NCBI GenBank assembly: GCA_038064815.1
Contig: JBBTSF010000064.1
Coordinates: 2,308 to 66,307, forward strand
Reading direction: 5' to 3'
Source of the DNA: Patescibacteria group bacterium
Lineage (GTDB): Bacteria; Patescibacteriota; Patescibacteriia; UBA9934; GWF2-40-263
Length of the DNA: 64,000 bases
The position numbers and the translations under genes were made by a program. The notes under the pieces were generated by a model that was given only the letters and a program-made list of their open reading frames with translations, ran no database searches and was not told where the DNA came from. This document shows, one piece after another, positions 3,798 to 64,000 of the stretch; position 1 is the first letter of the stretch, and each line of letters opens with the position of its first letter.

Positions 3798-6050
3798 CTA
3801 TCGTCTCGCCGTCTCCCCACTCACCACATCCTCCAAATGCACACTGAGCAAACTCGACACTCCATCATCTCCCATCGTCACTCCGTACAAGACATCCGCC
3901 TTTTCCATCGTCGCGCGATTGTGTGTAATCACGATGAACTGACTTTTTTGGGAGAGTTCGTCGAGGATCGATGCGAAGCGGATCGTGTTGGCTTCGTCGA
4001 GGGCTGCGTCGACTTCGTCGAGGACGACGAATGGGGAAGGGTTCACGTCCATGATCGCGGAGAGAAGCGCGATCGAGGTGAGGGCGCGTTCGCCTCCGGA
4101 GAGGAGGTTGAGGGACTTCATGCGCTTGCCTGGGGGAGTCGCTTGAATGTCTACACCAACGATCGGGTCTTCATGCTTTTTCATTTTTTCCTGAATCTCA
4201 TCGGTCTTTTCTCGCTCTGCGGTTCCGGTGTCTGCAAAGACGCGATCGGGAGTCACTTCTTCTGCTTCGATTTCTTCGGAGGTGAGTTTCACCAAGTTGC
4301 ACGAGCCGCCACCAAACAGAATTTTGAAATAGTGCTGAAATTTTTTATTGATCTCACCGAACACTTTGCTGGATTGTTTTTCGATTTGGTCATCTAGCTC
4401 CTTCACGATTTTTTCGGTAGACGCGATGGCTTGCTGTAAGTCCGTGACTTGCGTTTCCAAAAATTCAAACCGTGTTTTTGTTTCTTGGTATTCTTTAATG
4501 ATCTCCGGATCGATTCCACCGATGAGTTCGAGTTTGTAGCGGATGCGTTGGATTTCTGGATGAAGATCATCGGCGTTGCGTGCGATCGCGACCCGTGTGA
4601 CACGCACGGACGGTCCAGCTTCTTTCATGAATTCATCCATCTCGCGTTTCAAATTTTCACTGCGTTCCTCCAGACGTGCAAGCGTAATTTCGTGTTGATT
4701 GCGATTTTGTTCGAGGACATGAAGTTCCTGTTGTTTGCTGCGAAACGCGCGTTGAGAATCGATCAGTTCCGTGCGAACTTTTTGTTCCTTCGCTGCGTAT
4801 GAGTCGATCTGTTTTTCAATCTGCGATAGCTGCGAAGCCATTTCTTTTTCTTCTACCTGAAGCGTTTTCAATTTCGCAATCAGCTCTGGATCTGGCTTGA
4901 TGTCCTCTGGGTTTGGTCGTTGCAATCGCGAAACCAGCGTATTGGAATGCCCAAACACTTCGTCGATGGCAGTCATGACCTCTTCGAGCTTTTCGAACTT
5001 CTTGAGCTTCTCGAGCTTCAATTTAATCTCTTCTACCCCTTCAATAATCTTCGAAAGCGGAAGTGGCGCCCAGTTCGACTGCGCCTTTACCTTCGAAAGT
5101 TCAATCGATTTTTCTGTTTCAAACTGCGCGCGGCGTGAGAGTTCACATTTCTTCTGCTGCTCACGATATTCTTTTTGCAAAGCCGCAAGCCCTTCATCTT
5201 TAATGTCCTCACCTTCCATCTCTTTTGTTTTCTGCTCGAGGATTTTGAGTTCGGCCTGAAGATCACTCATGGTTTTGTCAGACGCATGGAATCGTTTTTT
5301 GGCTTCCTCAGTTTCGTCCACGAGCGTCCACCACAAACTTCCATAATACTTTTCTTCGAGTCCGCGAAGTTCTTGCTCAACCGCCGCGCGTTCTTCCAAA
5401 CGATTTGCTTGGCGCTTGAGGGATCGAAGGCGCGGCTCAATTTCTTTCATGAGCATTTCCAGATCGTTGAGATTTTCCAGTGTCCGTTTCAACTTCAACA
5501 TCGCCTCATGTCGTTTGATTTGAAACTGTTTTACGCCGGTGGCGTCATCAAAAAACGCTTTACGTTCCTCAGGAGTGGAAACCAAAATATGATCGATCAT
5601 TCCTTGACCGATGACACTATAGGATCGTTGACCGACGTTTGCTTGGGCGAGAAGAAGTTGAATGTCTGAAAGTCGGAGTGCTCCTTCGTTTAAAATATAT
5701 TCAGATGTCCCGTCTCGAAACAATCGACGACTAATCGTCACATGGCCGTATTCAATCGGCATCGCTCCATCTTCGTTGTTGAAGCTGAGTGAGACCTCCG
5801 CAAATCCTCCGCGTGCGCGGCCTTCCGATCCAGAAAAAATCACATCTTCGGATTGCTTTCCGCGTAAGAGTTTCAAACTTTGTTCGCCAAGCACCCAACG
5901 AATGGCGTCGGCTAAGTTTGATTTTCCAGAACCGTTTGGCCCAACCACAGCGGTGACCGGACAGCGCTTTTCGCCTGGTGGCAGAAAGCTCAGAACTGTT
6001 TTTTTTGCGAAGGTTTTAAAGCCCTGAATTTCCAATTTTTCGAGATACAT
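3798..6050 (-). CDS. smc: chromosome segregation protein SMC, unusually short at 750 aa with no recognizable hinge
   Basis: Canonical SMC head at the N-terminus: MYLEKLEIQGFKTFAKKTVLSF..VVGPNGSGKSNLADAIRWVLGEQS. Canonical C-terminus: LSGGERALTSIALLSAIMDVNPSPFVVLDEVDAALDEAN...QFIVITHNRATME. The start was moved to the ATG at 6050; the track ORF extends 94 codons upstream. Confidence 0.85.
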   Translation of the reverse strand: MYLEKLEIQGFKTFAKKTVLSFLPPGEKRCPVTAVVGPNGSGKSNLADAIRWVLGEQSLKLLRGKQSEDVIFSGSEGRARGGFAEVSLSFNNEDGAMPIEYGHVTISRRLFRDGTSEYILNEGALRLSDIQLLLAQANVGQRSYSVIGQGMIDHILVSTPEERKAFFDDATGVKQFQIKRHEAMLKLKRTLENLNDLEMLMKEIEPRLRSLKRQANRLEERAAVEQELRGLEEKYYGSLWWTLVDETEEAKKRFHASDKTMSDLQAELKILEQKTKEMEGEDIKDEGLAALQKEYREQQKKCELSRRAQFETEKSIELSKVKAQSNWAPLPLSKIIEGVEEIKLKLEKLKKFEKLEEVMTAIDEVFGHSNTLVSRLQRPNPEDIKPDPELIAKLKTLQVEEKEMASQLSQIEKQIDSYAAKEQKVRTELIDSQRAFRSKQQELHVLEQNRNQHEITLARLEERSENLKREMDEFMKEAGPSVRVTRVAIARNADDLHPEIQRIRYKLELIGGIDPEIIKEYQETKTRFEFLETQVTDLQQAIASTEKIVKELDDQIEKQSSKVFGEINKKFQHYFKILFGGGSCNLVKLTSEEIEAEEVTPDRVFADTGTAEREKTDEIQEKMKKHEDPIVGVDIQATPPGKRMKSLNLLSGGERALTSIALLSAIMDVNPSPFVVLDEVDAALDEANTIRFASILDELSQKSQFIVITHNRATMEKADVLYGVTMGDDGVSSLLSVHLEDVVSGETARR

Positions 6051-6131
6051 AGGGTGAAGGGATGAAGATAGGGAAAGTATAACACGATTGACGCAGCGGC
6101 TTTGGTCCGATACACTGCATTCTTTCCACAT

Positions 6132-7124
6132 ATGGAAATCCTTCGCCACAAACAAATTTACGAGGAGCTTTTGAGCGCACAGCATCCTGTGTTTGTTTCG
6201 GATGAGCGGATTGATGGGGATAGCTTGGGGTCTGCGCTTGCGATGGTCGACTTTTTGAAAATGTACGGACGTCCACGCCCACCGGTGTTTGTATCTGGAC
6301 CGATTCCTGCCGTGTATCAGTCTCTTCCGCACATCGAAATGTGCACAGACGACATGAGTGTGTTTTTAGACCCGAGCGTGGATTTGATCGTGTCTTTTGA
6401 TTGTTCCGATAGCGAATACATCGATCGATTGCTTGAAACTGCCACGACGCGACCGCGAGTAATCAATATCGATCATCACAAAACGAATGGTCTTTATGGA
6501 AATGTAAACCAAGTCATTGTTGGCGCTCCCGCAACCGCGGAAGTCGTCTATCGATTTTTTGAACACCATCACATTCTCATCAGCAAAGACGCTGCGACCT
6601 GTTTACTGACGGGCCTTTGTTTTGACACAACAGCCTTTTCAAATTCAGCCACCAATGAACGCGCGCTTCATGTTGCCTCACAGCTGGTTCTCAGTGGCGC
6701 CCGTGTCCAAGATGCGATCCGTTCCATGTTTAAAAATCGTTCCATCCCGGCTTTGCGTGTGTGGGGTCTGGCCCTGGAGCGGCTTCATCATAACCCGACG
6801 TTTGATTGCATCATCACCTGTCTGACCCGAAAAGACATTGAAGAAAACGATGTGCTGGATGAGGAGATTGACGGACTTTCGAATTTCTTGAGCCTGGTCA
6901 CAGACACAGAAACGCTTTACGTTTTGCGCGAAACGCCGGAGGGGGGAGTGAAGATTAGTATGCGTTCCTCGAGTCGAGATGTCAGTGCGGTTGCGAAAGC
7001 GAACGGGGGAGGCGGGCATGAAAAGGCGGCAGGGTATTCGGTTGAGAATGCGAAGCTCGTGCCTGCAGAGGATGGGATTTGGAGAGTTGAAAGAAACGTG
7101 GAATGGAGTAAAGTGGTCGAGTAA
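6132..7124 (+). CDS. nrnA: DHH-family phosphoesterase (NrnA-like bifunctional oligoribonuclease/pAp phosphatase)
   Basis: DHH motif in [10 protein letters not shown] and the DHHA1 GGGGH motif in [14 protein letters not shown]. The start is the ATG at 6132, MEILRHKQ. Confidence 0.75.
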
Positions 7125-7137
7125 TTATTCTCCATCT

Positions 7138-7728
7138 ATGTCCACAAAAAATTCCATTCTCATCCCAACCGTGATTGAAAAAACACATATGGGAGAACGT
7201 GCGTACGATATCTACTCACGTCTTCTCAAAGATCGCATTATTTTTTTGGGCACAGAAATCGATGATACGGTCGCGAATCTCGTCATCGCTCAGCTGCTTT
7301 TTTTGGAAAGCCAAGATAAAACAAAAGAGATCAAACTCTACATCAACTCTCCAGGAGGATCGGTTACGTCCGGCCTCGCGATTTACGACGCGATGCAATA
7401 CGTGAAGCCACATGTCTCCACGATCTGTGTGGGAATGGCGGCGTCGATGGGGGCGGTGCTTTTGGCGGCGGGAGAAAAAGGCAAACGCTTTGCTCTGCCA
7501 AATTCAGAGATCATGATTCACCAAGTGCTTGGGGGAGTGAGTGGTCAGGCGACTGATATCAAGATTCACGCAGAGCGTATTTTGAAGATTAAAGACCAAT
7601 TAAACGAGATTCTTTCCAAACATACGGGTCAGAAAAAGGCTAAAGTGGCCGAGGATACGGAACGCGATTATTTCCTGGATTCAGCCGAGGCTGTCAAATA
7701 TGGCCTGGTCGACAAGGTGATAAAATAG
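7138..7728 (+). CDS. clpP: ATP-dependent Clp protease proteolytic subunit
   Basis: [24 protein letters not shown]...[37 protein letters not shown] contains the ClpP catalytic Ser and His context. The start is the ATG at 7138. Confidence 0.9.
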
Positions 7729-51885: not shown

Positions 51886-53357
51886 CCTCGCCCTCAAAGA
51901 CTCTCGCCGCCCTGCTCGGGTCTTTTTGTTTGGGAATTTTATTTGGCCCTCTCTGTTTGTCTGTCGCAAGTCTATTTGTGTTGGTCCTGATTTTTTTCTT
52001 GCTGGTCGTTTGTCTTTTTCTCAAAAATGCAAAGCAACGTTTTCTTTTTTTATTTGCCCTCTTTTTTCTTGTCGGAATTTTTCGTTATCAACAAAGTGAA
52101 ATTCCTGCGGTGGTTGTCACGGCGGCTGATCGTGTTGGGAAAAGTGTCAGCGTGACAGGAATCGTTTCTTCACCGGTCGATCATCGCATTGATAGTCAAC
52201 ACGTGATCATCTCACATGTTTTTGTTGGAGATGAACCGGTCGATGGACGTGTGCTGGTGCGTTTTCTTTTGTATCCAGAAGTTTCTTTTCAAGATCGTGT
52301 GGAGTTTACCTGTCGGCTTGAGAAACCAGAACCGTTTAATGGGTTTGCTTACGATCGCTATCTGAATTCCCAGGGCGTGGTTGCTGTCTGTGGCTTTCCT
52401 GAGTTTGCGATTGTTGAGCAGACAAAATATCCAAATATCTTCGCTTGGATTTTACGTGGACGCGATGTACTTGTGACACAAATCAAACTGATTTTTTCTG
52501 AACCGTACGCGACGTTCGTGACAGGTCTGCTCTTTGGAGGAAGCTCTTCGTTCTCAACCGATCTACGAACCGATTTTGCACGCACGGGAACTTCACACAT
52601 TCTTGCCGCCTCCGGATTTAACGTCGCGCTTTTTTCCGTGGTCCTTTTAGAGTGGCTGCTTCAGAGTCCGTTGGGACGCAAGAAAGGATTGTTTGTGACC
52701 GCGGTCATTTTGTTTCTGTACCTCTTTGCCGCAGGCGCAACCGCTGCGGTATTACGTGCAACCCTAATGGCGAGTTTGCTCATTGTGCAAAAATGGATTG
52801 GCAGACGCGCGTGGATGGTGAACACGGTTCTGCTCACACTCACCATCATGCTTCTTTTGAACCCACGCATTCTTCTGGACGATGTCGGATTCCAACTTTC
52901 ATTTGTGGCAACGGTGAGTTTATTGTTTGTCACCCCACTATTTGAGAAGCGATTCCTTTTCTTCCCAGAACGATTCGGAATCCGTACGGCCATTGTCTCA
53001 TCTGTGATCGCGATCATTTTTACGTTACCGATCGTGATCTGGCATTTTGGACAGGTCTCACTTGTGGCGCCGCTCGTGAATTTACTTGTGCTTCCATTTA
53101 TTCCATTTGTGATGGCCGCATCTTTGATTGCACTTATCGCAAGTTTTATCTGGATGCCATTTGGATCTCTTCTCGCCCTTCCGGTCTGGGTGATCTCGTT
53201 TGCTTTACTCGAACTGATCCGCACCATGAGCACACTTTCGTTTGCAACGGTCACGGTTCCGATCGCGCATCTGATTGCCACCGTGATCGGTATTCTTCTC
53301 TTACTCTTTTTGTTTTCGCAACGTCATGTCCTCGGTCATTCGACACACACAAAATAA
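51864..53357 (+). CDS. comEC: ComEC/Rec2 competence protein, membrane-channel portion (DUF4131 plus competence domain)
   Basis: LLFGGSSSFSTDLRTDFARTGTSHILAASGFNVAL is the ComEC competence-domain signature. Polytopic. Confidence 0.8.
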   Translation: MRLAQIVASPSKTLAALLGSFCLGILFGPLCLSVASLFVLVLIFFLLVVCLFLKNAKQRFLFLFALFFLVGIFRYQQSEIPAVVVTAADRVGKSVSVTGIVSSPVDHRIDSQHVIISHVFVGDEPVDGRVLVRFLLYPEVSFQDRVEFTCRLEKPEPFNGFAYDRYLNSQGVVAVCGFPEFAIVEQTKYPNIFAWILRGRDVLVTQIKLIFSEPYATFVTGLLFGGSSSFSTDLRTDFARTGTSHILAASGFNVALFSVVLLEWLLQSPLGRKKGLFVTAVILFLYLFAAGATAAVLRATLMASLLIVQKWIGRRAWMVNTVLLTLTIMLLLNPRILLDDVGFQLSFVATVSLLFVTPLFEKRFLFFPERFGIRTAIVSSVIAIIFTLPIVIWHFGQVSLVAPLVNLLVLPFIPFVMAASLIALIASFIWMPFGSLLALPVWVISFALLELIRTMSTLSFATVTVPIAHLIATVIGILLLLFLFSQRHVLGHSTHTK

Positions 53358-54225
53358 GATTCGGTCGAAGTTTAAGCAGATTGCACTGAGTGTGTTCGTT
53401 CTTGTTTTGTTTTCCGTGTGGTCTCTCATGACGATCGCAAATCTTCAGCCACAAGGAAATTTACAGATGTGGGTTTTTGATATCGGCCAAGGTGACGCCA
53501 TTTTTATTCAGACAAAAGAAGGACAGCAAATTCTGATTGATGGAGGACGTGATCAAAAAATTCTTCAAAAACTTTCTTCGGTGATGTGGCCGTGGGATCG
53601 AACCATTGATGCGATTGTCGCGACTCATCCGGACGCAGATCACATCACAGGACTCATCTCTGTCCTTGATCGTTATCAGGTCAATACGATTTATGAAACC
53701 GGTGTGCGTGGAGAGACGCCGATGATTGATGCACTTGTTGAAGCGATTGGTCGGGAAGAGGCGGCACACACGATTTTGCGAGCGGGAGACAGATTCGATT
53801 TCGGAGACGTTCAATTTATGATCGAATGGCCGACGCAAGAGGCGGTGAATTCAGCAAAAGATCGGAACAACACATCCATCGTTTTAAAGCTTATCTATGG
53901 ATCTCATTCCATCTTGCTCACAGGAGATGCAGAAAAAGAGGTTGAAGCAGAAATAGCGAAAAAAATTGGCGATGTCGATGTGTTAAAAGTCGGTCATCAC
54001 GGAAGTGTTTCTTCGAGCACACTCACATTTCTTGAACAGATCAAACCAGAATATGCACTCATTCCTGTGGGAGAAAAAAATTCATACGGACACCCGCACC
54101 CGGTCGTGCTCTCTCGATTGATGCAAGTGGCCGCACAGATTTTTCGAACAGATCTTGATGGAGATATTCTGGTGACGACGGACGGAACCCATCTCCAGGT
54201 GGGACCCAAGTCCTTGCCATTTTGA
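53326..54225 (+). CDS. ComEC-type metallo-beta-lactamase domain protein; +1-frame ORF overlapping the comEC 3' end by 32 nt
   Basis: One TM helix, then MBL motifs: VFDIGQGDAI, ATHPDADHITGL, KVGHHGS. In canonical ComEC this domain is the C-terminus of the same polypeptide. Confidence 0.7.
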   Translation: MSSVIRHTQNKIRSKFKQIALSVFVLVLFSVWSLMTIANLQPQGNLQMWVFDIGQGDAIFIQTKEGQQILIDGGRDQKILQKLSSVMWPWDRTIDAIVATHPDADHITGLISVLDRYQVNTIYETGVRGETPMIDALVEAIGREEAAHTILRAGDRFDFGDVQFMIEWPTQEAVNSAKDRNNTSIVLKLIYGSHSILLTGDAEKEVEAEIAKKIGDVDVLKVGHHGSVSSSTLTFLEQIKPEYALIPVGEKNSYGHPHPVVLSRLMQVAAQIFRTDLDGDILVTTDGTHLQVGPKSLPF

Positions 54226-54264
54226 GAAATCGATGCTAGTCTTCCACTAAATTGATAAATATCT

Positions 54265-54732
54265 ATGGCAAATATCGAACAAACACTCGTACTCCTCAAG
54301 CCGGACGCACTTCAACGCGATCTTCTTGGTGAGATTACTTCTCGCTTCGAACGCAAAGGAATGAAGATTGTGGGATTGAAATTCATTCATCTCACAGAGG
54401 AGTTGCTTAATGAACACTATGTGCATCTTGCAGAGAAACCATTCTTTCCAAGTTTGAAACAGTTCATGATGCAGACACCTGTGGTCGCGATGGTACTTGA
54501 AGGGTACGACACCGTGGCTGAAGTGCGTAAGCTTGTTGGTTCAACCAACCCACGACAAGCAGACGCTGGAACGATTCGCGCGGATCTCTCCATGAATGTT
54601 CCATCGAACTTGATTCACGCTTCTGATTCTCTCGAAGCCGCACAAACAGAAGTGAAGCGATTTTTTGCAGAGAGTGAATTGTTCTCCTACGAAAAAATTA
54701 CAGACCGCTATCATTACGGAGAAGGTGTCTAA
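54265..54732 (+). CDS. ndk: nucleoside diphosphate kinase
   Basis: LVLLKPDALQR...GLKF... and the catalytic His in NLIHASDS, a G-to-A variant of NxxHGSD. Confidence 0.9.
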   Translation: MANIEQTLVLLKPDALQRDLLGEITSRFERKGMKIVGLKFIHLTEELLNEHYVHLAEKPFFPSLKQFMMQTPVVAMVLEGYDTVAEVRKLVGSTNPRQADAGTIRADLSMNVPSNLIHASDSLEAAQTEVKRFFAESELFSYEKITDRYHYGEGV

Positions 54733-55958: not shown

Positions 55959-56777
55959 TCACACGTGTCGGCCGACCCACCAGGTCGACCGGGCGATCAT
56001 GCCCAGTTCGCCGGTGTGGCCCTCGTAGTACGGGTTGACTTCCGTTGCGAGTCCTTGGGACTCCATGAAAATTCCAGCCCGACGGAAGTGTTCCTGCACC
56101 TGCCCGCGGTTGAGAATGGCCTTCTGATAGGTCCCTTCCCAAGCGAGTTCGCTCGTCGATCGATCGGTCACCCGAACGTCGATGGACATGATGCCCGAGT
56201 GTTCGTCGAACCGAGGGGCTCGATCGTCGAAGACCGGACGACCGTTGAGTTCAGCCTCCCACCGCATGGGGCTCCGTGTACGGCATCGGTCGAGGTAACC
56301 CTCACCGATATAGTCCATGACGAATACCCCCGTGTGGGAAACCGGACGAACCATGCCGTAGGTGACCCGGGCCAAGAGCTCCGGATCAACGATGTCGCCG
56401 AACGAGTTACCGAGCAGGATGCCCGCGCCAAGTCGTTCGTCGCTCTTCCATGTAGCAAGGTCACCGACGTGGAGTTCCACCCGCGGATCGTCGCAATGAG
56501 CCCGACGGGCTTTGTCGACGCACTTGGGGGAGAGATCCACCCCGACGATTCGTCGCACACCGCGATTGAGCAGGGAAGCGATGTGCCGACCCGTGCCGAA
56601 GCATGGGAGGAACACCGACCTTGGAACCCTGCCGATCAGCCGCAGAACGGTGTCGACTTCGGCGTCTGCGAGCGCGCGATCGTCATGAACGTCGCGATCG
56701 AGCTCTTCCATGACGTCGTAGTGACGCGCGATGTCGAACTGGGCTGGATGCTGGATCTGCGATGAGAGAGGCGCCAT
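55959..56777 (-). CDS. class I SAM-dependent methyltransferase, GC-rich
   Basis: Motif I VFLPCFGTGRHIASLL and motif II RIVGVDLS. The start is the ATG at 56777, which overlaps the TAA of the upstream gene as TAATG. The 306-codon N-terminal extension in the track ORF is Arg/Pro-rich GC-frame noise. Confidence 0.7.
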   Translation of the reverse strand: MAPLSSQIQHPAQFDIARHYDVMEELDRDVHDDRALADAEVDTVLRLIGRVPRSVFLPCFGTGRHIASLLNRGVRRIVGVDLSPKCVDKARRAHCDDPRVELHVGDLATWKSDERLGAGILLGNSFGDIVDPELLARVTYGMVRPVSHTGVFVMDYIGEGYLDRCRTRSPMRWEAELNGRPVFDDRAPRFDEHSGIMSIDVRVTDRSTSELAWEGTYQKAILNRGQVQEHFRRAGIFMESQGLATEVNPYYEGHTGELGMIARSTWWVGRHV

Positions 56778-58633
56778 TACAGCTCGTCCGTGAAGACGAC
56801 CGGGCCCTCTTCGGCATCGTCCGCGCCGTGGATGCGGAAGCTCTTGCTTCGCAACGTCATCGTCGCGCCAGCGAGCTCGACCAACGAACCGGCCTTCCCG
56901 TGGAACAGGAAGAACGGGGTCAGGCGAGTGCGCGCGGCACGATCGATGGCGACCCGGCCCATCGCGTCGCGGTAGGCAACCGTGTAGCGGGCCGAGGCGA
57001 TGATGTGCTGAGCGACCACGGGGTGCGGCAGAGCCGCGACATCCTTGAGATGCGTGACCCACGCCGTCTGATTCTGGGCCTGGGGCCCGAGCACGATGCT
57101 GCGAGATCCCCAGGACTGGTTCTTGCCGTCCCATGCGGCGAACTTGGTGAGGTGAAGGTCGCGCTGGTTGGCGACCTCGGACTCCCAGGTTGAGCCGTTG
57201 ACGACCTGCGTCTGCGCGACGCAGTTGTGCAGGGTCGTGAGGGTTGCCTGGCCACCGAGGCTGACGATGCGGTCCATGACGGTACGATCCCAGAGGGCGG
57301 CCATCAGGCTCTTGCTCTCGAGGAAATACCACAGGGGGTTCATGACGTACGCGCCCTGTTCGTGCCAACGCTTCAGCAGTTCGAGTGCGTTGGTGTTGAC
57401 CAGGTTGTCCAGGTATCCGAAGCGGTAGATCACCGTCTCCGGCCCGAGGTCGAGGGGCATCCCCTCGTCGCTTCCGTGGACGAACTCGAGGAACCCGAGG
57501 CTCCGGAGTCGACCGAGGAAGTCGCGGTTCCACGCGGCGCGCGCGGTTGCGGAGATGTCCTTGTGGGGCTCCCACGCCGTCTGCACGCGCTCGTGGATCT
57601 CCGCGAGCGGCCTGTCGAACCAGAGTTCGGCATCCACGCCCGCGTCGCGCAGCGCCTTGATGAAGCAGGCCTGCTCCCACGTGTACTCGGCCCACTCGTT
57701 GGTGGCGAGCACAATGTACCGTCGCCCCTTGAGAAGCCGCAGGTAGCCGTTGAGCATGCTCAGCGGCAGGCCGTAGCCGAGCTCCATGGCGTGCGCCATG
57801 CCCTGACCGCCGGGGCAGCTCTCGAACTCCGTGATGACCGGGCGCAGCTTCTTGGTGACGGGATCGAGGACCACCACGATGTCGGGGCGCATCACGCCCA
57901 CCGTGTCTCCGTGGAGAAGGGCGGGGATGCGATCCGGCTTGCGGTAGCTGAGCAGATTGCGCGGTGTCTCGTAGTCGCGGTGGGTCTCGTAAACGGCCTG
58001 GAAGGCCACGCCGAGAGCCTGACCAAGCTCACCGAGCTCCGTCACGAAGTATGTCGGCAGAGCGAACGGATCGATCATCTGGCGCCACGTGACGCCGGTG
58101 CCACCCTTGTAGCCGACGCCAGTCGCCGTCATGATCCGCCGCGTCTCTTCGACGCTGGGCTCGACGGGCTTGCCGATGCGGTCAGCGAACTTGCTGACGC
58201 CCGCGGCCTGGTCGTATCCGTCGACGAGCTCGGGTTCGACCAGGAGAAGGTCTGCGAGGTTCGGGGTGACGCCACCGATCTTGGGGATGTTCTCGATGAC
58301 AACCCACTTGCGCGGCTGACCCTTGCGAACTCCTTCCTCCGCCCGCCACTTGAACCCGATGATGGCGTACCGCTCCTCGAGCGCATTCAGAATTGGACCG
58401 TTCTTCGGCCACTCCGTGCTCTGCTCGGGGACGGTCACACCGTCCAGCTCGACCTTGCCGGCGAGCACTTCGTCTCGCCACTTCTTGGTCGTTCCATGTG
58501 GGGTGCCATTGGGCCCTGGCTTGAAGCCGTGCTTCACCCGCACTGCGAGAATCGCATCGGGCTTCGCCTTGGCTGTTGTTCCGCCCTCCCAGCTTCCGCT
58601 GGTGGTCGGACGATCTTCGGTGAGCAATGTCAT
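56777..58633 (-). CDS. hypothetical 618 aa protein with an ATP-grasp-like motif, GC-rich, translationally coupled to the methyltransferase
   Basis: ATG at 58633 with GGAGGG nine nt upstream. PVITEFESCPGGQGMAHAMELGYGL resembles the ATP-grasp E-x-N-x-x-P-G segment of D-Ala-D-Ala ligase, here E-x-E-x-x-P-G. Non-repetitive protein. About 65% GC. Confidence 0.5.
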   Translation of the reverse strand: MTLLTEDRPTTSGSWEGGTTAKAKPDAILAVRVKHGFKPGPNGTPHGTTKKWRDEVLAGKVELDGVTVPEQSTEWPKNGPILNALEERYAIIGFKWRAEEGVRKGQPRKWVVIENIPKIGGVTPNLADLLLVEPELVDGYDQAAGVSKFADRIGKPVEPSVEETRRIMTATGVGYKGGTGVTWRQMIDPFALPTYFVTELGELGQALGVAFQAVYETHRDYETPRNLLSYRKPDRIPALLHGDTVGVMRPDIVVVLDPVTKKLRPVITEFESCPGGQGMAHAMELGYGLPLSMLNGYLRLLKGRRYIVLATNEWAEYTWEQACFIKALRDAGVDAELWFDRPLAEIHERVQTAWEPHKDISATARAAWNRDFLGRLRSLGFLEFVHGSDEGMPLDLGPETVIYRFGYLDNLVNTNALELLKRWHEQGAYVMNPLWYFLESKSLMAALWDRTVMDRIVSLGGQATLTTLHNCVAQTQVVNGSTWESEVANQRDLHLTKFAAWDGKNQSWGSRSIVLGPQAQNQTAWVTHLKDVAALPHPVVAQHIIASARYTVAYRDAMGRVAIDRAARTRLTPFFLFHGKAGSLVELAGATMTLRSKSFRIHGADDAEEGPVVFTDEL

Positions 58634-58726
58634 CTTCGCTATCCCTCCATCACTGGTTGCGTTCTGGTCATTCCTCCAACAAGCATTTCTGCTCGCAGAG
58701 GGAAAACAGGACACAACCCTTAAACA

Positions 58727-58757
58727 AAATCGCTACGGATTCTCTCCGTAGCGATCT
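58727..58757. promoter_or_regulatory. hairpin at the GC-island / host boundary
   Basis: ATCGCTACGG-attctctc-CGTAGCGAT, immediately upstream of the 618 aa gene. GC composition changes here. Confidence 0.3.
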
Positions 58758-58938
58758 GTCTTTCTAGTTGCTTTAAGGAAAACAGCTAGGCAGGTAGACT
58801 ACGGAAAGAGAAGTTGACACGAATAAAGGTAACCCAAAGTGTTGTAAGGTCCTTTACGTGTGTCATCTTTTTTCCGTAGACATTGTTCATATCGTCGAAA
58901 AGTATAAAGAACAGGAAAATAGTTGTCAAATTTATTGT

Positions 58939-59727
58939 ATGATCGGCATCTTTGATTCTGGGATTGGTGGGTTGGGAGTGATGTATGTAATTCGTCAGAA
59001 ATCTGCAAACGCAGACCTGATTTATTTTGGAGATTTGGCGAATATGCCATACGGTCCGAAGTCCGCAGACGAGCTTTTTACGCTCACCATGCGAGCGATG
59101 GCGTTTCTTGGTTCTCAGGGTGCGACGCAATATGTCTCTGCATGTAATTCGGTTTCCGTTTCTGTCATTCAACCTCTTTTGCAATCACAAGGTTTACGCG
59201 ATGTGCGCATCATCGAGATGGTTCAGCCAGCCGCAAAGGCACTCAGCCATCAGACGTCGGGAAAAATATTGGCTGCGGCGACAGAGGCAACCGTCCGATC
59301 CGGAATGTATGAACGCGTGCTTGCCACGTACGGGCTTGATGTCGAAATGATTGCTCTACCAGAACTCGCCAGTGCGATTGAGCGAAATGAAGAGGAAGAG
59401 ATTTTGCGTTCGATCATTTCTCCTGCGATTGAAAAAGCGATTGAGATAAATGCAAAGACGTTTGTGTTTGGTTGCACGCAATATCCATTTGTAAAAAATC
59501 TTTTCGCGAAGGTGTTTGGTGAAAGGGAACATGAAATCAAGTTATTCGATCCAAGCGAAGCGGTTGCGGAAGAAACAATTAAAAATTTTGAGATGAAGGG
59601 AAGTGGAACGAATAAGTTTTTTGTTTCCAAGTCGTCAGAAGTATTTGAGGACACGGTTCGGCGTTTGTTTGGCACGAATTCACAAGTGATTTGTGTTGAT
59701 GTGGATAAAACTGTGCACAAAGAGTGA
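58939..59727 (+). CDS. murI: glutamate racemase
   Basis: IGIFDSGIGGLGV and the catalytic GCTQYP second cysteine motif. The ATG is at 58939. Confidence 0.85.
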   Translation: MIGIFDSGIGGLGVMYVIRQKSANADLIYFGDLANMPYGPKSADELFTLTMRAMAFLGSQGATQYVSACNSVSVSVIQPLLQSQGLRDVRIIEMVQPAAKALSHQTSGKILAAATEATVRSGMYERVLATYGLDVEMIALPELASAIERNEEEEILRSIISPAIEKAIEINAKTFVFGCTQYPFVKNLFAKVFGEREHEIKLFDPSEAVAEETIKNFEMKGSGTNKFFVSKSSEVFEDTVRRLFGTNSQVICVDVDKTVHKE

Positions 59728-59841
59728 TTAACCAAGCCTTTCCACGCTTGTCGCTTTCTGTCAGAGTGATACATTTAAATTGCTTCACGATCAGATGGGT
59801 GTGCCTATTAAATACAAGTCACTTGATGGTCTGAAATTGTT

Positions 59842-60051
59842 GTGCCACGCATGACAAAAGACCACACGGTTTATTCTTTCTGCGGCGACGACACGGTGGA
59901 CCAATCCTCTACCCTCACCGTTCTGCAGACGGATAGATATGACACTCGCTCTGTTCGAGTAACCGCATATCAGAATCCAATCACTTTGTTGCTAATCCGG
60001 GCCACCCATTTTCTTGTGAGGCACGAAAAAATCACGTTCATGGAAACGTGA
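59842..60051 (+). CDS. possible small protein of 69 aa inside the long leader region; alternatively non-coding
   Basis: The ORF ends inside the terminator stem at 60031-60058. No SD-like sequence upstream. Coding status unresolved. Confidence 0.2.
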   Translation: MPRMTKDHTVYSFCGDDTVDQSSTLTVLQTDRYDTRSVRVTAYQNPITLLLIRATHFLVRHEKITFMET

Positions 60052-60058
60052 TTTTTTT
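60031..60058 (+). terminator. strong intrinsic terminator 45 nt upstream of the membrane-protein operon
   Basis: AAAAAA-ATCACGT-tcatggaa-ACGTGAT-TTTTTTT. Confidence 0.6.
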
Positions 60059-60102
60059 ATTCACCTTTCATTTTTAAGAAGAGCCGGGTGGTGGTACAGT
60101 GA

Positions 60103-60471
60103 ATGCCTGTGAAACAGAATCATTTTTTGAATTTTTTGATCGTGGGAGGATACGCCTTTATTCCGTGGATTCTGATTTTATTTGTTTTATCTCTCACGTT
60201 TCATTTTCCGCATGCGGTATTTGTTCTTCTGCATTACGTGCTGAATGTTTTACTGTTCTTCATCGCATTTCGTTTCTTCTACCGAACTTACCCGCACGCA
60301 AACCCATTCTTTACGACGCTGAAGGTCCTCTTATTTCTCTGTCTGTTTGAAATTATCCTCTGGATTTTTTTCGGTCAGCCACAAAAACCATTCTTGAACT
60401 ATATTGATTTTCTTTTTCCCGCGTTTCTTATTGTGACCACTATTTATGCCGTCGGAAAACAACAAAACTAA
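60103..60471 (+). CDS. small polytopic membrane protein of 122 aa, paralog of the 62170..62526 product
   Basis: The C-terminus FLNYIDFLFPAFLIVTTIYAVGKQQN is homologous to FLNYVDWIFPMFLAVSTVYFVGKFFV in the second copy. Three to four TM helices. Confidence 0.6.
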   Translation: MPVKQNHFLNFLIVGGYAFIPWILILFVLSLTFHFPHAVFVLLHYVLNVLLFFIAFRFFYRTYPHANPFFTTLKVLLFLCLFEIILWIFFGQPQKPFLNYIDFLFPAFLIVTTIYAVGKQQN

Positions 60472-62173
60472 CATCCCAATTTTTTACTTCGATCGCGATT
60501 GCGGTTTGTGTCGCTATTGGACGAACTATTGGAAACAACTCACGGGAGATCATGTTGAGTATCGGGAATTTGAAGGGAAGGTTCCCGGCTCCTCAGAGTT
60601 TGTGGAAACAGATGGACGTGTTTTTTCTGGGGCGCAAGGCGTCGCACGACTTCTTTCTTACGCGCCGGGAAAAGGATGGTTTCTGTGGTTGTATAAACAT
60701 ATTCCACCGTTTGCGTGGATCAGCGAATTTGTTTACAAACAAGTCTCGAAGTGTCGCACGTGTGCGGCAAAATTCACTCGTCTTCTTTGGGGAGAAAATC
60801 TTCAACCCTCCACATTTTTTTTCACCCGTCGATTGTTTCTTCGATTGATCGGGCTTGTATACTTCATCGCTTTTTTGGCATTCGGTCTCCAGATCCCTGG
60901 ACTCATCGGAGAGCAGGGGATTCTTCCTGCAGGATCTTTTCTGAATAACGTTCATCAGATGTTTGGTTCCTGGTCGTTTTTGAATGTCCCCACGCTCGCA
61001 TGGATAAATAGTAGCGGATCATTTTTGCAAATGCTTGCGTTTATTGGCGCCGCGTTTGGTCTTCTTGCATTCATCGGCATCCAACTGGCGCCGATGTTTT
61101 TTGTCCTATGGATTTTGTATCTCTCGCTTTTTTACGCGGGGCAAACATTCATGGGATTTCAGTGGGACACCATGCTGCTCGAAGTTGGATTCCTCGCGAT
61201 CTTTTTTGCTCCCATGCGATTTGCCTCAAGAATTAATCCTTCCGCCATCGTTGTCTGGCTCTACCGGTTTTTAATTTTTCGTTTAATGCTTGGATCTGGT
61301 TTTGTGAAACTCGCAAGCGGAGATCTCTCTTGGCGATCTCTTTCCGCACTCGACTATCATTACTTCACCCAACCGATTCCAAATCCGATTTCTTGGTTTG
61401 CCCATCAGCTTCCGTTATTCATCAATCACGCGAGTGTATTGATGATGTTTGTCATTCAACTCATCTTGCCATTTTTTATTTTTGCACCACGCCGTTTTCG
61501 TTTCGCTGCCGCAACAGGGTTCGTCCTACTCGAAGGACTCATCGCATTCACCGGAAATTTTTCTTTCTTCAATTTACTCACATTGATTTTAGTCATCCCA
61601 CTTTTTGACGACGCGTTCTTTCGTTATAAAAAAAGTCACGCGCCCCACAAACAACCAAGTAAATTTTCTGTCTGGACCTATCGTAGTCTCGCAACACTCG
61701 TGATCGCTTTATTTCTTTTTCAAATCCCAACGCCGTTTCGTTTGGTGAATCCATATGGTGTGTTCGCAACGATCACAACATCACGCCAAGAGATTGTGAT
61801 GGAGGGAAGTATGGATGGAAAAAGTTGGCAGGCATATGAATTCAAGTACAAGCCGGGAGATGTGATGCGACATCCACCGGTGATCGCGCCCTATCAACCA
61901 CGATTGGATTGGCAAATGTGGTTTGCCGCGCTTTCTTCCTATGAACAGAATCCTTGGTTCTTAAAATTCGCGACTCAGTTGCTCAACGCCTCACCGGACG
62001 TCTTGTCTCTGCTCGCAAACGACCCATTCCACGGATCTCGTCCAAGGTACATTCGCGCAGCGTTGTACGAATATACCTTTACGACCATGGATGAACGTCG
62101 CGAAACGGGCGCGTGGTGGAAGCGAGAAGGGAAAGGTCTTTACATGCCGCAAATCCAAAGACGAACATTATGA
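60446..62173 (+). CDS. fusion of a DCC-type thiol-disulfide oxidoreductase domain (DUF393) with an HTTM / vitamin-K-dependent gamma-carboxylase-like (lipase-maturation-factor-like) membrane domain
   Basis: N-terminal IFYFDRDCGLCRYW matches the DCC D-G-x-C-x-L-C motif. A large polytopic HTTM-like body and a soluble C-terminal region follow. The 5' end overlaps the upstream gene by 26 nt. The ATGA overlaps the downstream paralog. Confidence 0.7.
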   Translation: MPSENNKTNIPIFYFDRDCGLCRYWTNYWKQLTGDHVEYREFEGKVPGSSEFVETDGRVFSGAQGVARLLSYAPGKGWFLWLYKHIPPFAWISEFVYKQVSKCRTCAAKFTRLLWGENLQPSTFFFTRRLFLRLIGLVYFIAFLAFGLQIPGLIGEQGILPAGSFLNNVHQMFGSWSFLNVPTLAWINSSGSFLQMLAFIGAAFGLLAFIGIQLAPMFFVLWILYLSLFYAGQTFMGFQWDTMLLEVGFLAIFFAPMRFASRINPSAIVVWLYRFLIFRLMLGSGFVKLASGDLSWRSLSALDYHYFTQPIPNPISWFAHQLPLFINHASVLMMFVIQLILPFFIFAPRRFRFAAATGFVLLEGLIAFTGNFSFFNLLTLILVIPLFDDAFFRYKKSHAPHKQPSKFSVWTYRSLATLVIALFLFQIPTPFRLVNPYGVFATITTSRQEIVMEGSMDGKSWQAYEFKYKPGDVMRHPPVIAPYQPRLDWQMWFAALSSYEQNPWFLKFATQLLNASPDVLSLLANDPFHGSRPRYIRAALYEYTFTTMDERRETGAWWKREGKGLYMPQIQRRTL

Positions 62174-62526
62174 TGTTGTTTTTCGACATCTTACTCATCG
62201 CACTCCACGCATTCATCGCTTGGTTGCTTGTTGAGGTGTTTGTGAACAATGCGCATTCTTTTTCACGCAAGAAATTCATCTTCTTTCATTACCTGTGTGT
62301 GATCGCGACGTTTGCGATCATCTTCGCTATTTACTTTTCTTTTTTCTCCACGTTTTCCGTCTTCGCCACAGCCGTCATTGCGATTTGTGTTGTGGGGTTT
62401 TTGGAGCTTCTTGTCTTTGGATATCTCTATAGCGGCGACCGATGGTTTTTAAATTATGTTGATTGGATTTTTCCGATGTTTCTTGCGGTAAGCACGGTTT
62501 ATTTTGTGGGAAAATTTTTCGTGTAG
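62170..62526 (+). CDS. small polytopic membrane protein of 118 aa, paralog of the 60103..60471 product
   Basis: The ATG at 62170 overlaps the TGA of the HTTM gene. The track ORF begins at an upstream GTG. Confidence 0.6.
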   Translation: MMLFFDILLIALHAFIAWLLVEVFVNNAHSFSRKKFIFFHYLCVIATFAIIFAIYFSFFSTFSVFATAVIAICVVGFLELLVFGYLYSGDRWFLNYVDWIFPMFLAVSTVYFVGKFFV

Positions 62527-62559
62527 TTGATTGACTTCTCTGAAAAAAAAGGTATCCTA

Positions 62560-63876
62560 ATGGCGCTTATGGAAACATTTCACATCACAGGCGGGAAGCC
62601 TCTTTTTGGGGAAGTTACGCTCTCAGGCACGAAGAATGCCGCTTCTAAAATGATGATCGCCAGCTTGCTCACCGACGAGCCGGTTGTTTTGCAAAATGTT
62701 CCGCGTCAACACGAGACACAGATTACGCAAGACATCATTACAACGATCGGGGCGCAAATTATTTGGAAAGACGAACACACGCTTCAGACGACCACCTCTA
62801 CGATTGCCACAAGCTCTGTTCAAACGCTTTCTCCAAAAAACAGAATCGGCATTTTAACGCTCGCTCCACTGTTGCATCGCACAGGCGAAGTGTTCGTTCC
62901 GTTTCTTGGGGGAGATCAGATTGGTCCACGTCCGGTGGATTTTCACGTTCGAGCGCTTCAAAAAATGGGCGCGCAGATTGAAGAAAGTGCGGAAGGCTAT
63001 CACGCAACCACAAAAAAACGATTGAAAGGAGCACTGATTGAACTTCCGTACCCATCTGTCGGTGCCACAGAAACCGCTATTCTTGCCGGTGTTCTTGCGG
63101 AAGGCCGCACCACGATTCGTAATGCAGCGAGCGAACCAGAAATTCTGACACTCATCATGATGCTCCAAGACATGGGCGCCATTATCCAGATGAATGCGGG
63201 ACGTTCGATTGAAATTTTGGGAGTGGAAAAATTGCACGGCACAACCGTTTCTGTGTTGCCTGATCGCAACGAAGCGGTTTCATATGCCTGTATGGCGCTT
63301 GGAACGCACGGCGAAATTTTTGTCCGTGGCGCACAACATGAACATCTCATGACCTTTCTTAATACCGTTCGACGCATCGGTGGGGAATATCAGGTGAGTC
63401 CTGATGGAATTTTGTTTAAGGGGGGCGATCAGTACACAGGTGTCGAACTCGAAACAGATACACATCCAGGATTCATGACCGATTGGCAACAGCCGCTTGT
63501 AGTCGTGCTGACACAAGCAAAAGGCATTTCTGTTGTGCACGAAACGGTTTATGAAGAACGATTTGCGTACACCCAAGCGCTCAATAAAATGGGAGCCAAC
63601 ATCACCCTTTTTAGTAACTGCTTAGGAGAAATCGAGTGTCGTTTCAAAGGACAAAATTATAAACACTCCGCTGTGGTCACGGGTCCGACACCGCTTCATG
63701 CGGCAGAAGTCGTGGTTCCAGATATTCGTGCGGGACTCGCGTTTGTCGTCGCTGCCTTGGTGGGAGAAGGAACCTCTCTTTTAAGTGGAATTGAGCATCT
63801 AGATCGCGGATACGAGCGTTTGGAAGAAAAATTGCTCGGCATTGGTGCGCAGATTAAACGCGTCGTGAGTAACTAA
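62560..63876 (+). CDS. murA: UDP-N-acetylglucosamine 1-carboxyvinyltransferase
   Basis: GGKPLFGEVTLSGTKNAASKMMIASLL and the Cys/Asp-loop region. The start is the ATG at 62560 or 62569. Confidence 0.9.
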   Translation: MALMETFHITGGKPLFGEVTLSGTKNAASKMMIASLLTDEPVVLQNVPRQHETQITQDIITTIGAQIIWKDEHTLQTTTSTIATSSVQTLSPKNRIGILTLAPLLHRTGEVFVPFLGGDQIGPRPVDFHVRALQKMGAQIEESAEGYHATTKKRLKGALIELPYPSVGATETAILAGVLAEGRTTIRNAASEPEILTLIMMLQDMGAIIQMNAGRSIEILGVEKLHGTTVSVLPDRNEAVSYACMALGTHGEIFVRGAQHEHLMTFLNTVRRIGGEYQVSPDGILFKGGDQYTGVELETDTHPGFMTDWQQPLVVVLTQAKGISVVHETVYEERFAYTQALNKMGANITLFSNCLGEIECRFKGQNYKHSAVVTGPTPLHAAEVVVPDIRAGLAFVVAALVGEGTSLLSGIEHLDRGYERLEEKLLGIGAQIKRVVSN

Positions 63877-63898
63877 TTTTTACAATTTTAAGAAGAGT

Positions 63899-64000
63899 AT
63901 GTTTTTAAATCTTATTTTTGCGTCGCCAGCGATTGGGCTTGCCTGGGCTCTGGCGATTTTGGCCTCCCTCACCCTCCATGAATTTGCACACGCCTTTGTG
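63899..64000 (+). CDS. M50 / site-2 protease family membrane metalloprotease, N-terminal fragment; continues past the window end
   Basis: MFLNLIFASPAIGLAWALAILASLTLHEFAHAFV contains the HExxH zinc motif in a TM helix. Confidence 0.6.
   Translation, partial: MFLNLIFASPAIGLAWALAILASLTLHEFAHAFV

Follow-up and report, generated by a model that had tools for sequence, protein, structure and literature searches.

Bacterial proteins of the lipase maturation factor (LMF) family that carry an N-terminal DCC1-like (DUF393) domain have thousands of homologues, and their three-domain architecture recurs in a 575-aa protein encoded on a 64,000-nt stretch of contig JBBTSF010000064.1 from a Patescibacteria group bacterium most closely related, among named organisms, to Candidatus Uhrbacteria; this stretch is hereafter called the window. 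The window protein differs from other bacterial LMF proteins in its genomic setting only, its gene being coupled between those of two small membrane paralogues, SM-A and SM-B; an additional CxxC motif (residues 103-106) marks the Patescibacteria subset to which it belongs. The fold predicted for the fusion is common to vitamin K-dependent gamma-glutamyl carboxylase (GGCX), a member of the HTTM superfamily; however, GGCX has no counterpart of the DCC domain, and there is no match between the two at the sequence level. The small membrane proteins, in turn, resemble the SMR pairs (EbrAB, YdgEF) and the Fluc/CrcB pairs, which likewise consist of ~120-aa proteins with four transmembrane (TM) helices, encoded as paralogues in one locus and showing opposite lysine-plus-arginine (K+R) bias. 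The near-zero bias of most lone SM copies belongs to the same likeness. Nevertheless, the SM proteins lack sequence, profile, or PDB fold similarity to SMR and CrcB, and the SM-A and SM-B genes, unlike those of SMR/Fluc pairs, are often separated by kilobases of cargo.

A structured element of ~250 nt lies 5' of SM-A. It falls into the size class of the large bacterial non-coding RNAs (6S, RNase P RNA, SRP RNA, tmRNA, raiA, and OLE), with which it also shares a promoter and terminator of its own, a long stem formed by the 5' and 3' ends, and clade-wide conservation; the multi-branch core predicted for it is unlike the rod shape of 6S. We know of no phased upstream array of DnaA-box-like sites, such as the one found here, described for the genes of these RNAs. 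The element can also be compared with riboswitch and attenuator leaders: in the window and three relatives, a structured RNA and a terminator are situated shortly 5' of a start codon. It differs from such leaders in having its own promoter and site array, a variable distance to SM-A, and non-homologous downstream genes.

An earlier note on this DNA, made from the sequence alone, had described an operon of two small membrane proteins flanking a gamma-carboxylase-like fusion behind a riboswitch or attenuator leader. What it observed in the sequence is real and not due to chance; it is the label "leader" alone that is an interpretation, and on the whole the earlier interpretation is partly supported. 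The explanation that we favour, with moderate confidence, is that the locus combines an independent small RNA (sRNA) gene, an antiparallel SM pair tied to murA, and a DCC-LMF1 redox enzyme. The coordinates of the features are collected in Table 1.

Table 1. Features of the locus and the evidence by which they were assigned (window coordinates).
Feature	Position	Strand	Evidence or remark
murI (glutamate racemase)	58858..59727	+	TIGR00067 glut_race, E=1.6e-39; Pfam Asp_Glu_race
DnaA-box-like 9-mer array, one orientation	59700..59731	+	consensus match
Box 1, TGTGGATAA	59700-59708		perfect
Box 2, TGTGCACAA	59712-59720		
Third box	near 59723		degenerate
Putative sRNA promoter	59748..59775	+	-35 TTGTCG (59748-59753), 16-nt spacer, extended -10 TGATACATT (TGaTACATT, 59767-59775)
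Candidate sRNA, conserved structured core, ~250 nt	59780..60026	+	nhmmer, RNAalifold, covariation
sRNA intrinsic terminator	60026..60058	+	sequence reading, minimum-free-energy fold
SM-A, type A, 4 TM, 122 aa	60103..60471	+	family profile, AlphaFold2 model
DCC1-like + LMF1 + LMF1_C fusion, 575 aa	60446..62173	+	Pfam
DCC1-like domain (DxxCxxC)	~60485-60760	+	Pfam
LMF1 domain	~61151-61624	+	Pfam
LMF1_C domain	~61742-62149	+	Pfam
SM-B, SM-A paralogue, type B, 118 aa	62170..62526	+	paralogy, family profile
murA (UDP-N-acetylglucosamine 1-carboxyvinyltransferase)	62527..63876	+	TIGR01072, E=2.3e-138

The upstream element as a candidate sRNA gene

The earlier note had proposed that the region upstream of SM-A be compared among relatives, and the element proved to be conserved. 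With the segment 59701-60110 as the nhmmer query against loci fetched from related genomes, and with nhmmer profiles and MAFFT alignments for the relatives, it was recovered from 12 genome loci (E from 5e-20 to 1e-2). A pattern scan of metagenomes contributed five additional distinct sequences, after ~28 of its 40 matches had been attributed to chance and dropped upon profile scoring, and further copies were later found in L083, L084/L085, and L087 (the letter L with a number denotes a locus from a related genome). The alignment comprises 17 distinct full-length copies. Across the copies, the promoter is followed by ~205-280 nt whose 5' and 3' ends are paired as a long stem. In particular, the fold consists of this closing stem (P1), at least two internal hairpins (P2 and P3), and a multi-branch junction with a variable region. 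RNAalifold, applied to the 17 sequences, yields 31 pairs in P1-P3, with double changes in 15 as compared with 5.5 in shuffles. Paired cells amount to 96.8% versus 90.6% in the shuffled alignments, none of the 500 shuffles reaches any of five measures, and sliding the partners by 1-3 columns lowers the paired cells to 34-50%. Moreover, invariant G-U pairs, e.g., that of columns 132 and 168 (GU in 17/17), fix the plus strand.

In the window, the intergenic region folds with -99.2 kcal/mol (z=-7.5 relative to shuffles), and the terminator forms a separate hairpin after P1 in the minimum-free-energy fold. An intrinsic terminator 45 nt 5' of the first ATG (60103) had been correctly recognized before; its hairpin (60026-60051) and T-run (60052-60058) can be read as a strong terminator, with a 13-bp extended stem (60026-60038/60045-60058), a G+C core (60032-60038/60045-60051), and a loop (60039-60044), and then 7 T. 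A G+C-rich hairpin with a T-run was read by eye downstream of 15 of the 17 printed copies and in L084. As for a pairing that could compete with the terminator, a weak A-U alternative was seen, again by eye.

There is no reading frame common to the copies of the element on either strand, and blastx and tblastx comparisons indicate conservation at the nucleotide level only. A 69-aa small open reading frame (ORF) at 59842-60051 was rejected as a gene because the copies share neither frame nor strand and their length differences are not multiples of three. The Rfam scan that the earlier note had suggested matched no family: cmscan returned nothing relevant for 58500-64000 at E<=1, for six related loci, or for the isolated 296 nt at E<=10, and at gathering thresholds only three tRNAs were detected in the whole window. 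ARAGORN found neither a tRNA nor a tmRNA in 58500-64000, and a literature search on structured RNAs of the Candidate Phyla Radiation (CPR) gave nothing specific. Taken as a conserved, folded, non-coding sequence, the element is a candidate for a new class of structured sRNA.

Transcription of the sRNA is predicted to start at ~59782, downstream of a putative extended -10 promoter. The promoter columns T-G-n-T-A-n-n-n-T and a TTGCA-like -35 are invariant or nearly so in 12 copies and visible in all 17 upstream sequences. Farther 5', 9-mers were compared with the DnaA-box consensus TTATCCACA. A perfect TGTGGATAA occurs just once in the 64 kb, as Box 1, and one-mismatch boxes are at chance level overall. 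Upstream of every one of the 18 sRNA copies examined lies at least one box with <=2 mismatches, and mostly there are two or three. These TGTGGATAA-like 9-mers are spaced by 11-12 nt, at about -93/-81/-69/-57, and are helically phased (for example, L005 4076-4110 and L008 5568-5600). The murI gene lies upstream of the element in six distinct genomes, and in murI-bearing genomes, the window included, the array overlaps the 3' end of that gene, i.e., its last codons; L008 and L066 keep only a murI 3' remnant that carries the boxes. Judging by these sites, it is reasonable to propose that DnaA controls the sRNA promoter. An oriC at the array was considered and rejected, since GC skew is positive throughout the window without a switch and the flanking genes are co-directional.

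The position of the element relative to SM-A varies. It is found directly 5' of SM-A in 4 of ~20 distinct genomes (the window, L083, L084/L085, and L008), and in other genomes 0.3-3.9 kb of non-homologous genes are interposed. In L010, the gene that follows the element has the opposite orientation; in L087, an acyltransferase gene comes after it; and in L047 and L052, no SM gene is present in the 6.7 and 7.6 kb available downstream. Because the element has its own promoter, a variable position, and non-homologous followers, it appears to be an independent sRNA gene and not the riboswitch or attenuator of this operon, as which the ~300-nt region had been described. Such a gene would extend over ~59782-60058, with an extended -10 promoter behind phased DnaA-box-like sites and a terminator of its own. 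The sRNA may act in trans or bind a protein, and its transcription may respond to DnaA or to some factor whose site is similar.

A separate observation concerns the interval between the sRNA terminator and SM-A. The sequence TGGTACAGT (60092-60100) resembles an extended -10 element and is located 8 nt 5' of a GTG at 60109, an alternative start of SM-A that agrees with the NCBI call of 120 aa. Similarly, in L084 (~7170-7196), the extended -10-like TGATACACT is located 8 nt 5' of the GTG start of SM-A. With low confidence, these could be the gene's own extended -10 promoter, from which a leaderless mRNA would be made.

A family of small membrane proteins and its neighbour murA

The earlier note had recognized homology between the C-termini of the two small proteins. 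The paralogy is true but not confined to the C-terminus: SM-A and SM-B are 29% identical across 112 aa (E=6e-14), i.e., over their whole length. A word-indexed search with SM-A alone as the query matched only SM-A itself, a three-sequence profile retrieved 56 proteins, and HMMER, run exhaustively over 1.84 billion representatives, gave 65 cluster representatives. Nearly all members are 113-130 aa long, fusions to other domains do not occur among them, and all those with a named source come from Patescibacteria. No match to the family was found in Pfam, NCBIfam, or PDB sequences, and the NCBI entries for SM-A and SM-B are hypothetical proteins (AAB431_03110 and AAB431_03120). The AlphaFold2 model of SM-A (predicted local distance difference test score, pLDDT, 92) has four TM helices and no significant match among PDB folds. 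By these comparisons, the SM proteins are a previously unannotated 4-TM family restricted to Patescibacteria (CPR). SM-family genes are also present in records labelled "uncultured Gammaproteobacteria bacterium" (L005, L017, L030, and L032) and "uncultured archaeon" (L034); the order in L005 and L032 is of the Patescibacteria type (murI or an alpha/beta hydrolase gene upstream, then an SM-A/SM-B pair), and the taxonomic labels of all five are probably wrong.

The conserved residues of the family include W22, R37, H44-Y45, E83, WFLN 96-99, D102-W103, P106, Y115, and G118. Conserved His, Glu, and Asp residues embedded in the membrane point to a possible role as a small transporter or channel. 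Two types can be told apart by TM1, which ends in ...AW.L.E.FVN in type B (AWLLVEVFVN in SM-B of the window) and contains ...F.PW.... in type A. The types also differ in K+R bias, defined here as Lys+Arg in the N-terminus, loop 2, and the C-terminus minus those in loops 1 and 3. Type B has a mean bias of -2.05 (n=60), as against +2.82 in the other copies (n=95); in the window, SM-A is inside-positive and SM-B outside-positive. When an A/B pair occurs in the same locus, the upstream A is the more inside-positive protein in 15 of 15 cases, and the signs are strictly opposite in 12. Lone SM copies from other lineages (Terrybacteria, Parcubacteria, and others) mostly have a bias within +/-1 of zero. 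Such a charge pattern has been described for dual-topology families and for duplicated, oppositely oriented pairs (PMC3755343, PMC3962082). SM-A and SM-B thus probably insert into the membrane in opposite orientations, and from their opposite bias, by the positive-inside rule, we infer an antiparallel A/B heterodimer, which would be similar to paired SMR or Fluc subunits. L037 (Candidatus Magasanikbacteria) departs from the A/B pattern, in that two non-B paralogues (4687-5061 and 5890-6264) both have zero K+R bias; they possibly represent a recent duplication of a dual-topology form.

To define the genomic context of the family, 38 genome loci were fetched with the SM profile and analysed with hidden Markov models (SM, LMF/DCC, murA, and murI) and all-against-all clustering of the remaining ORFs. 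SM-B is directly 5' of murA in most loci with a type-B copy, and the murA cluster, found in 21 loci, is usually followed by an M50 peptidase gene and rpsL-rpsG-fusA. In L006, L011, and L015, SM-A and SM-B stand side by side with no gene between them; in other loci, they enclose cargo of up to ~11 kb (L018 and L020, on one contig). Among the cargo genes are, besides those for DCC-LMF and stand-alone DCC proteins (110-122 aa), genes for transporters (a Na+/H+ exchanger and a CitMHS transporter, the latter together with a CBS protein), alpha/beta hydrolases, a PlsC-type acyltransferase, and a SAM-hydroxide adenosyltransferase-like protein. DCC or DCC-LMF follows A, or stands between A and B, in ~10 of ~21 distinct genomes. 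As far as gene order indicates, the A/B pair and murA make up the conserved unit, which DCC accompanies repeatedly in a single lineage; the LMF domain is dispensable there. The genetic partner of the SM pair would accordingly be murA and not the LMF gene.

The DCC-LMF1 fusion and its neighbourhood

The central protein contains the motif FDRDCGLCRYW (residues 15-25), as the earlier note had seen, and consists of three Pfam domains: DCC1-like (residues 14-105; 31.5 bits versus a cut-off of 27.8), LMF1 (PF06762; residues 236-393, E=1.8e-55, 187.9 bits versus 27), and LMF1_C (PF25179; residues 433-568, E=2.6e-55, 186.7 bits versus 34.2). At least 7,910 homologues of the fusion score at E<=1e-5; of the 120 that were listed, 118 have all three domains. 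Their sources include Bryobacterales, Terriglobia, Dadabacteria, Saprospiraceae, and Phototrophicaceae and span several phyla, Acidobacteriota, Bacteroidota, and Chloroflexota among them, and nearly all of the homologues fall outside the taxa that have SM proteins. In NCBI, the identical central protein bears the name [quoted passage not shown]. Judged by its domains, the DCC-LMF1 fusion is an already annotated and widespread bacterial architecture; a literature search on bacterial DCC, HTTM, and LMF proteins gave nothing specific.

The description "gamma-carboxylase-like" in the earlier note holds for the fold, together with the DCC fusion, and not for the sequence. The Pfam HTTM profile does not match the central protein at E<=0.1, and searches of PDB sequences with the protein and with its family profile returned no match, GGCX included. 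In contrast, when the AlphaFold2 model (built with 65 sequences; pLDDT 92.9, predicted template-modelling score 0.91) was compared with the PDB by Foldseek, the best 15 matches were all cryo-EM structures of GGCX (probability 1.00 each, E from 8e-6 to 2e-3). The sole other match below E=0.6 was a sixteenth GGCX entry (E=0.3, probability 0.54).

Among 60 homologues, the DxxCxxC residues D16, C19, and C22 are kept in 57-58. A second CxxC motif, CRTC (C103/C106; 60752-60763 in the window), closes the DCC domain and is present in 11 of the 60, all of the Patescibacteria subset. The membrane part has no conserved Cys; its invariant polar residues are W240-D241, E246, K288 (kept in 59 of the 60), D293, H305, R349/R352, and D388-D389. 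The DCC domain, presumably cytoplasmic and thioredoxin-like, would thus be joined to a polytopic domain of gamma-carboxylase fold and a beta-rich C-terminal domain, and its CxxC may supply or remove reducing equivalents for the chemistry of the membrane domain. A recent review puts forward eukaryotic LMF1 as possibly being the membrane protein by which reducing equivalents cross the endoplasmic reticulum membrane (PMC12781119). A bacterial LMF1 fused to a CxxC domain is consistent with a redox role. Because conserved cysteines are lacking in the membrane part, a DsbD-like cysteine relay seems unlikely; any relay would more plausibly use a lipid or a quinone as cofactor.

The ORFs and their overlaps are as the earlier note had them: SM-A and the 575-aa ORF overlap by 26 nt, and the latter ends in ...TTATGA, whose ATG at 62170 opens SM-B (ATGA overlap). 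Co-translation at this locus is likely on the basis of these overlaps, and since DCC(-LMF) would be translationally coupled to both SM-A and SM-B, all three proteins may be made together. The proposed coupled trio stands for the closest relatives. L083, whose LMF is 64% identical, has the order sRNA / SM-A / DCC-LMF / SM-B / murA with the same 26-nt overlap. In L084/L085, the order is sRNA / SM-A / DCC / SM-B / murA, and the overlaps are again of 26 nt and 4 nt; there, the central gene (L084 7531-8004, L085 6424-6897) encodes 157 aa, i.e., DCC and one hydrophobic helix, the LMF domain being deleted. Likewise, in L031 (5860-6621), a gene for DCC and a remnant (253 aa) still overlaps SM-A and SM-B. 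In these relatives, most or all of the LMF1 membrane domain is gone and one or a few hydrophobic helices are left beside DCC, which thus appears to be the component retained. Beyond these relatives, the trio is no general unit, in that the fusion is widespread without SM proteins and A/B pairs occur without DCC. SM genes also occur near LMF genes in L086 (A / LMF / two reverse genes / B / murA) and L088 (A / acyltransferase / LMF), but SM-A is missing from L001-L003 and L087 (acyltransferase / LMF), and in L089, a more distant LMF of Patescibacteria, there is no SM neighbour. The exact order SM-A / DCC(-LMF) / SM-B is confined to the closest relatives, and by gene order the trio is a lineage-specific arrangement and not a general system. 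Within this lineage, where DCC(-LMF) stands between SM-A and SM-B, the DCC domain may work with the SM pair.

The genes on either side of the locus are co-directional. The murI gene has its likely true start near 58939 (MIGIFDSGIGG...). As for murA, a TTG at 62527 directly follows SM-B, and the ATG at 62560 is the likely start. Between ndk and murI, a high-GC island (55959-58750; GC 0.64 versus 0.46 around it) contains a methyltransferase gene (55959-56774) and, on the minus strand, a 645-aa ORF (56777-58714) with no Pfam match. In L084/L085, the same place is occupied by a 642-aa gene that is 49% identical (GC 0.57 versus 0.46-0.47), and L085 also has the methyltransferase gene. Farther upstream (52110-54732), the window carries a split comEC (a Competence domain and a separate metallo-beta-lactamase ORF) and then ndk; this split comEC-ndk block is also found 5' of the sRNA/SM locus in L084, L011, L012, L015, and L040.

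Alternative explanations and meaning of the locus

Three alternatives concern what the upstream element does. It is very improbable that it acts as DNA, e.g., as a DnaA-box cluster, an origin-like element, or a regulatory region, instead of as an RNA gene. The perfect box and the phased array conserved 5' of the copies would agree with this, but the boxes span only ~40 nt, the next 250 nt contain compensatory changes, strand-specific G-U pairs, a promoter, and a terminator, and positive GC skew across the window with co-directional flanking genes does not point to an origin. A dual role is conceivable, if somewhat unlikely: a stable sRNA would in this sub-lineage also be the 5' part of the operon transcript, and read-through of the terminator, or processing, would set the expression of SM-A, DCC-LMF, SM-B, and murA. 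A scan of the 45-nt gap between terminator and ATG finds no plus-strand sigma-70-type promoter, and in L083 the terminator, with its weak T-run, abuts the start of SM-A. On the other hand, the terminator of the window is strong, and both TGGTACAGT and its L084 counterpart TGATACACT would fit a promoter belonging to SM-A. The proposal that SM-A, DCC-LMF, and SM-B form a dedicated three-subunit membrane system, with the 300-nt RNA as its riboswitch or attenuator leader, looks unlikely and has already been weakened by the comparative data. It draws on the identical overlaps from sRNA to murA in L083 and L084/L085, on the presence of A within one gene of DCC(-LMF) in 8 of the 11 related genomes examined, and on the terminator just 5' of SM-A in four genomes. 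However, DCC is absent from the interval in about half of the A/B pairs, three of which are directly adjacent; most or all of LMF is lost in L084/L085 and L031; DCC-LMF proteins of other phyla occur outside the taxa with the SM family; and L001-L003, L087, and L089 have LMF without SM-A. The RNA, moreover, has a conserved promoter of its own, matches no Rfam family, and is followed by non-homologous genes, in L010 by one on the opposite strand.

A further alternative separates the SM pair from DCC-LMF altogether. The pair would be a cell-wall membrane system, for instance a precursor or ion transporter acting with murA and murI, and DCC-LMF would be passenger cargo in an interval that tolerates insertions. 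This is possible, although we consider it doubtful. The position of murA after B in most loci with a type-B copy, the variety of the cargo (CitMHS and Na+/H+ transporters, the CBS protein, alpha/beta hydrolases, and the SAM-hydroxide adenosyltransferase-like protein), and the direct A/B adjacency in L006, L011, and L015, which looks like the simplest and possibly the ancestral state, are all in its favour. Yet the linkage with DCC survives several arrangements (A-DCC-B, A-acyltransferase-DCC, and A-DCC-LMF), and DCC is kept even where the LMF domain has been deleted.

Several points also weigh against the combination that we prefer, i.e., an independent sRNA gene, an SM pair tied to murA, and a redox-active fusion. 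All functions proposed for it are deduced from sequence, predicted structure, and gene order. The terminator is ~5-70 nt 5' of SM-A in the window, L083, L084/L085, and L008, and read-through could therefore add to operon transcription. The evidence for DnaA binding is the match to a consensus. The TM-scores of the fusion model to GGCX are 0.35-0.39, and K288 is at most a candidate for the equivalent of the catalytic lysine. The charge bias of type B is modest (-1 to -4), and the ORF starts used to calculate it may be over-extended. Finally, all loci in which DCC and SM genes are linked belong to one lineage; thus, shared ancestry, and not selection, could explain the linkage.

In its most far-reaching form, the hypothesis would be that Uhrbacteria-type Patescibacteria possess a hitherto undescribed, DnaA-controlled structured RNA of ~250 nt that is genetically tied to a new antiparallel 4-TM heterodimer; this heterodimer would in turn be the membrane partner of a cytoplasmic DCC thiol oxidoreductase, whether or not the latter carries a gamma-carboxylase-fold domain. 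Replication status would thereby be linked to the chemistry of the envelope (murI/murA) or to lipid-redox chemistry in organisms of minimal metabolism; we regard this as a long shot. None of the three leads is categorically new in kind. The DCC-LMF1 fusion, being common and having a gamma-carboxylase fold, may be a tractable bacterial model for LMF1 biochemistry, and its fused CxxC domain argues for thiol-redox chemistry by LMF1. The SM family shows what a textbook would lead one to expect where a dual-topology protein has given rise to two proteins of opposite orientation, and its partner would be murA. To our knowledge, few regulatory RNAs are known in Patescibacteria, and the upstream sRNA may add to them a candidate new class of structured RNA whose promoter region holds a phased array of DnaA-box-like sites.

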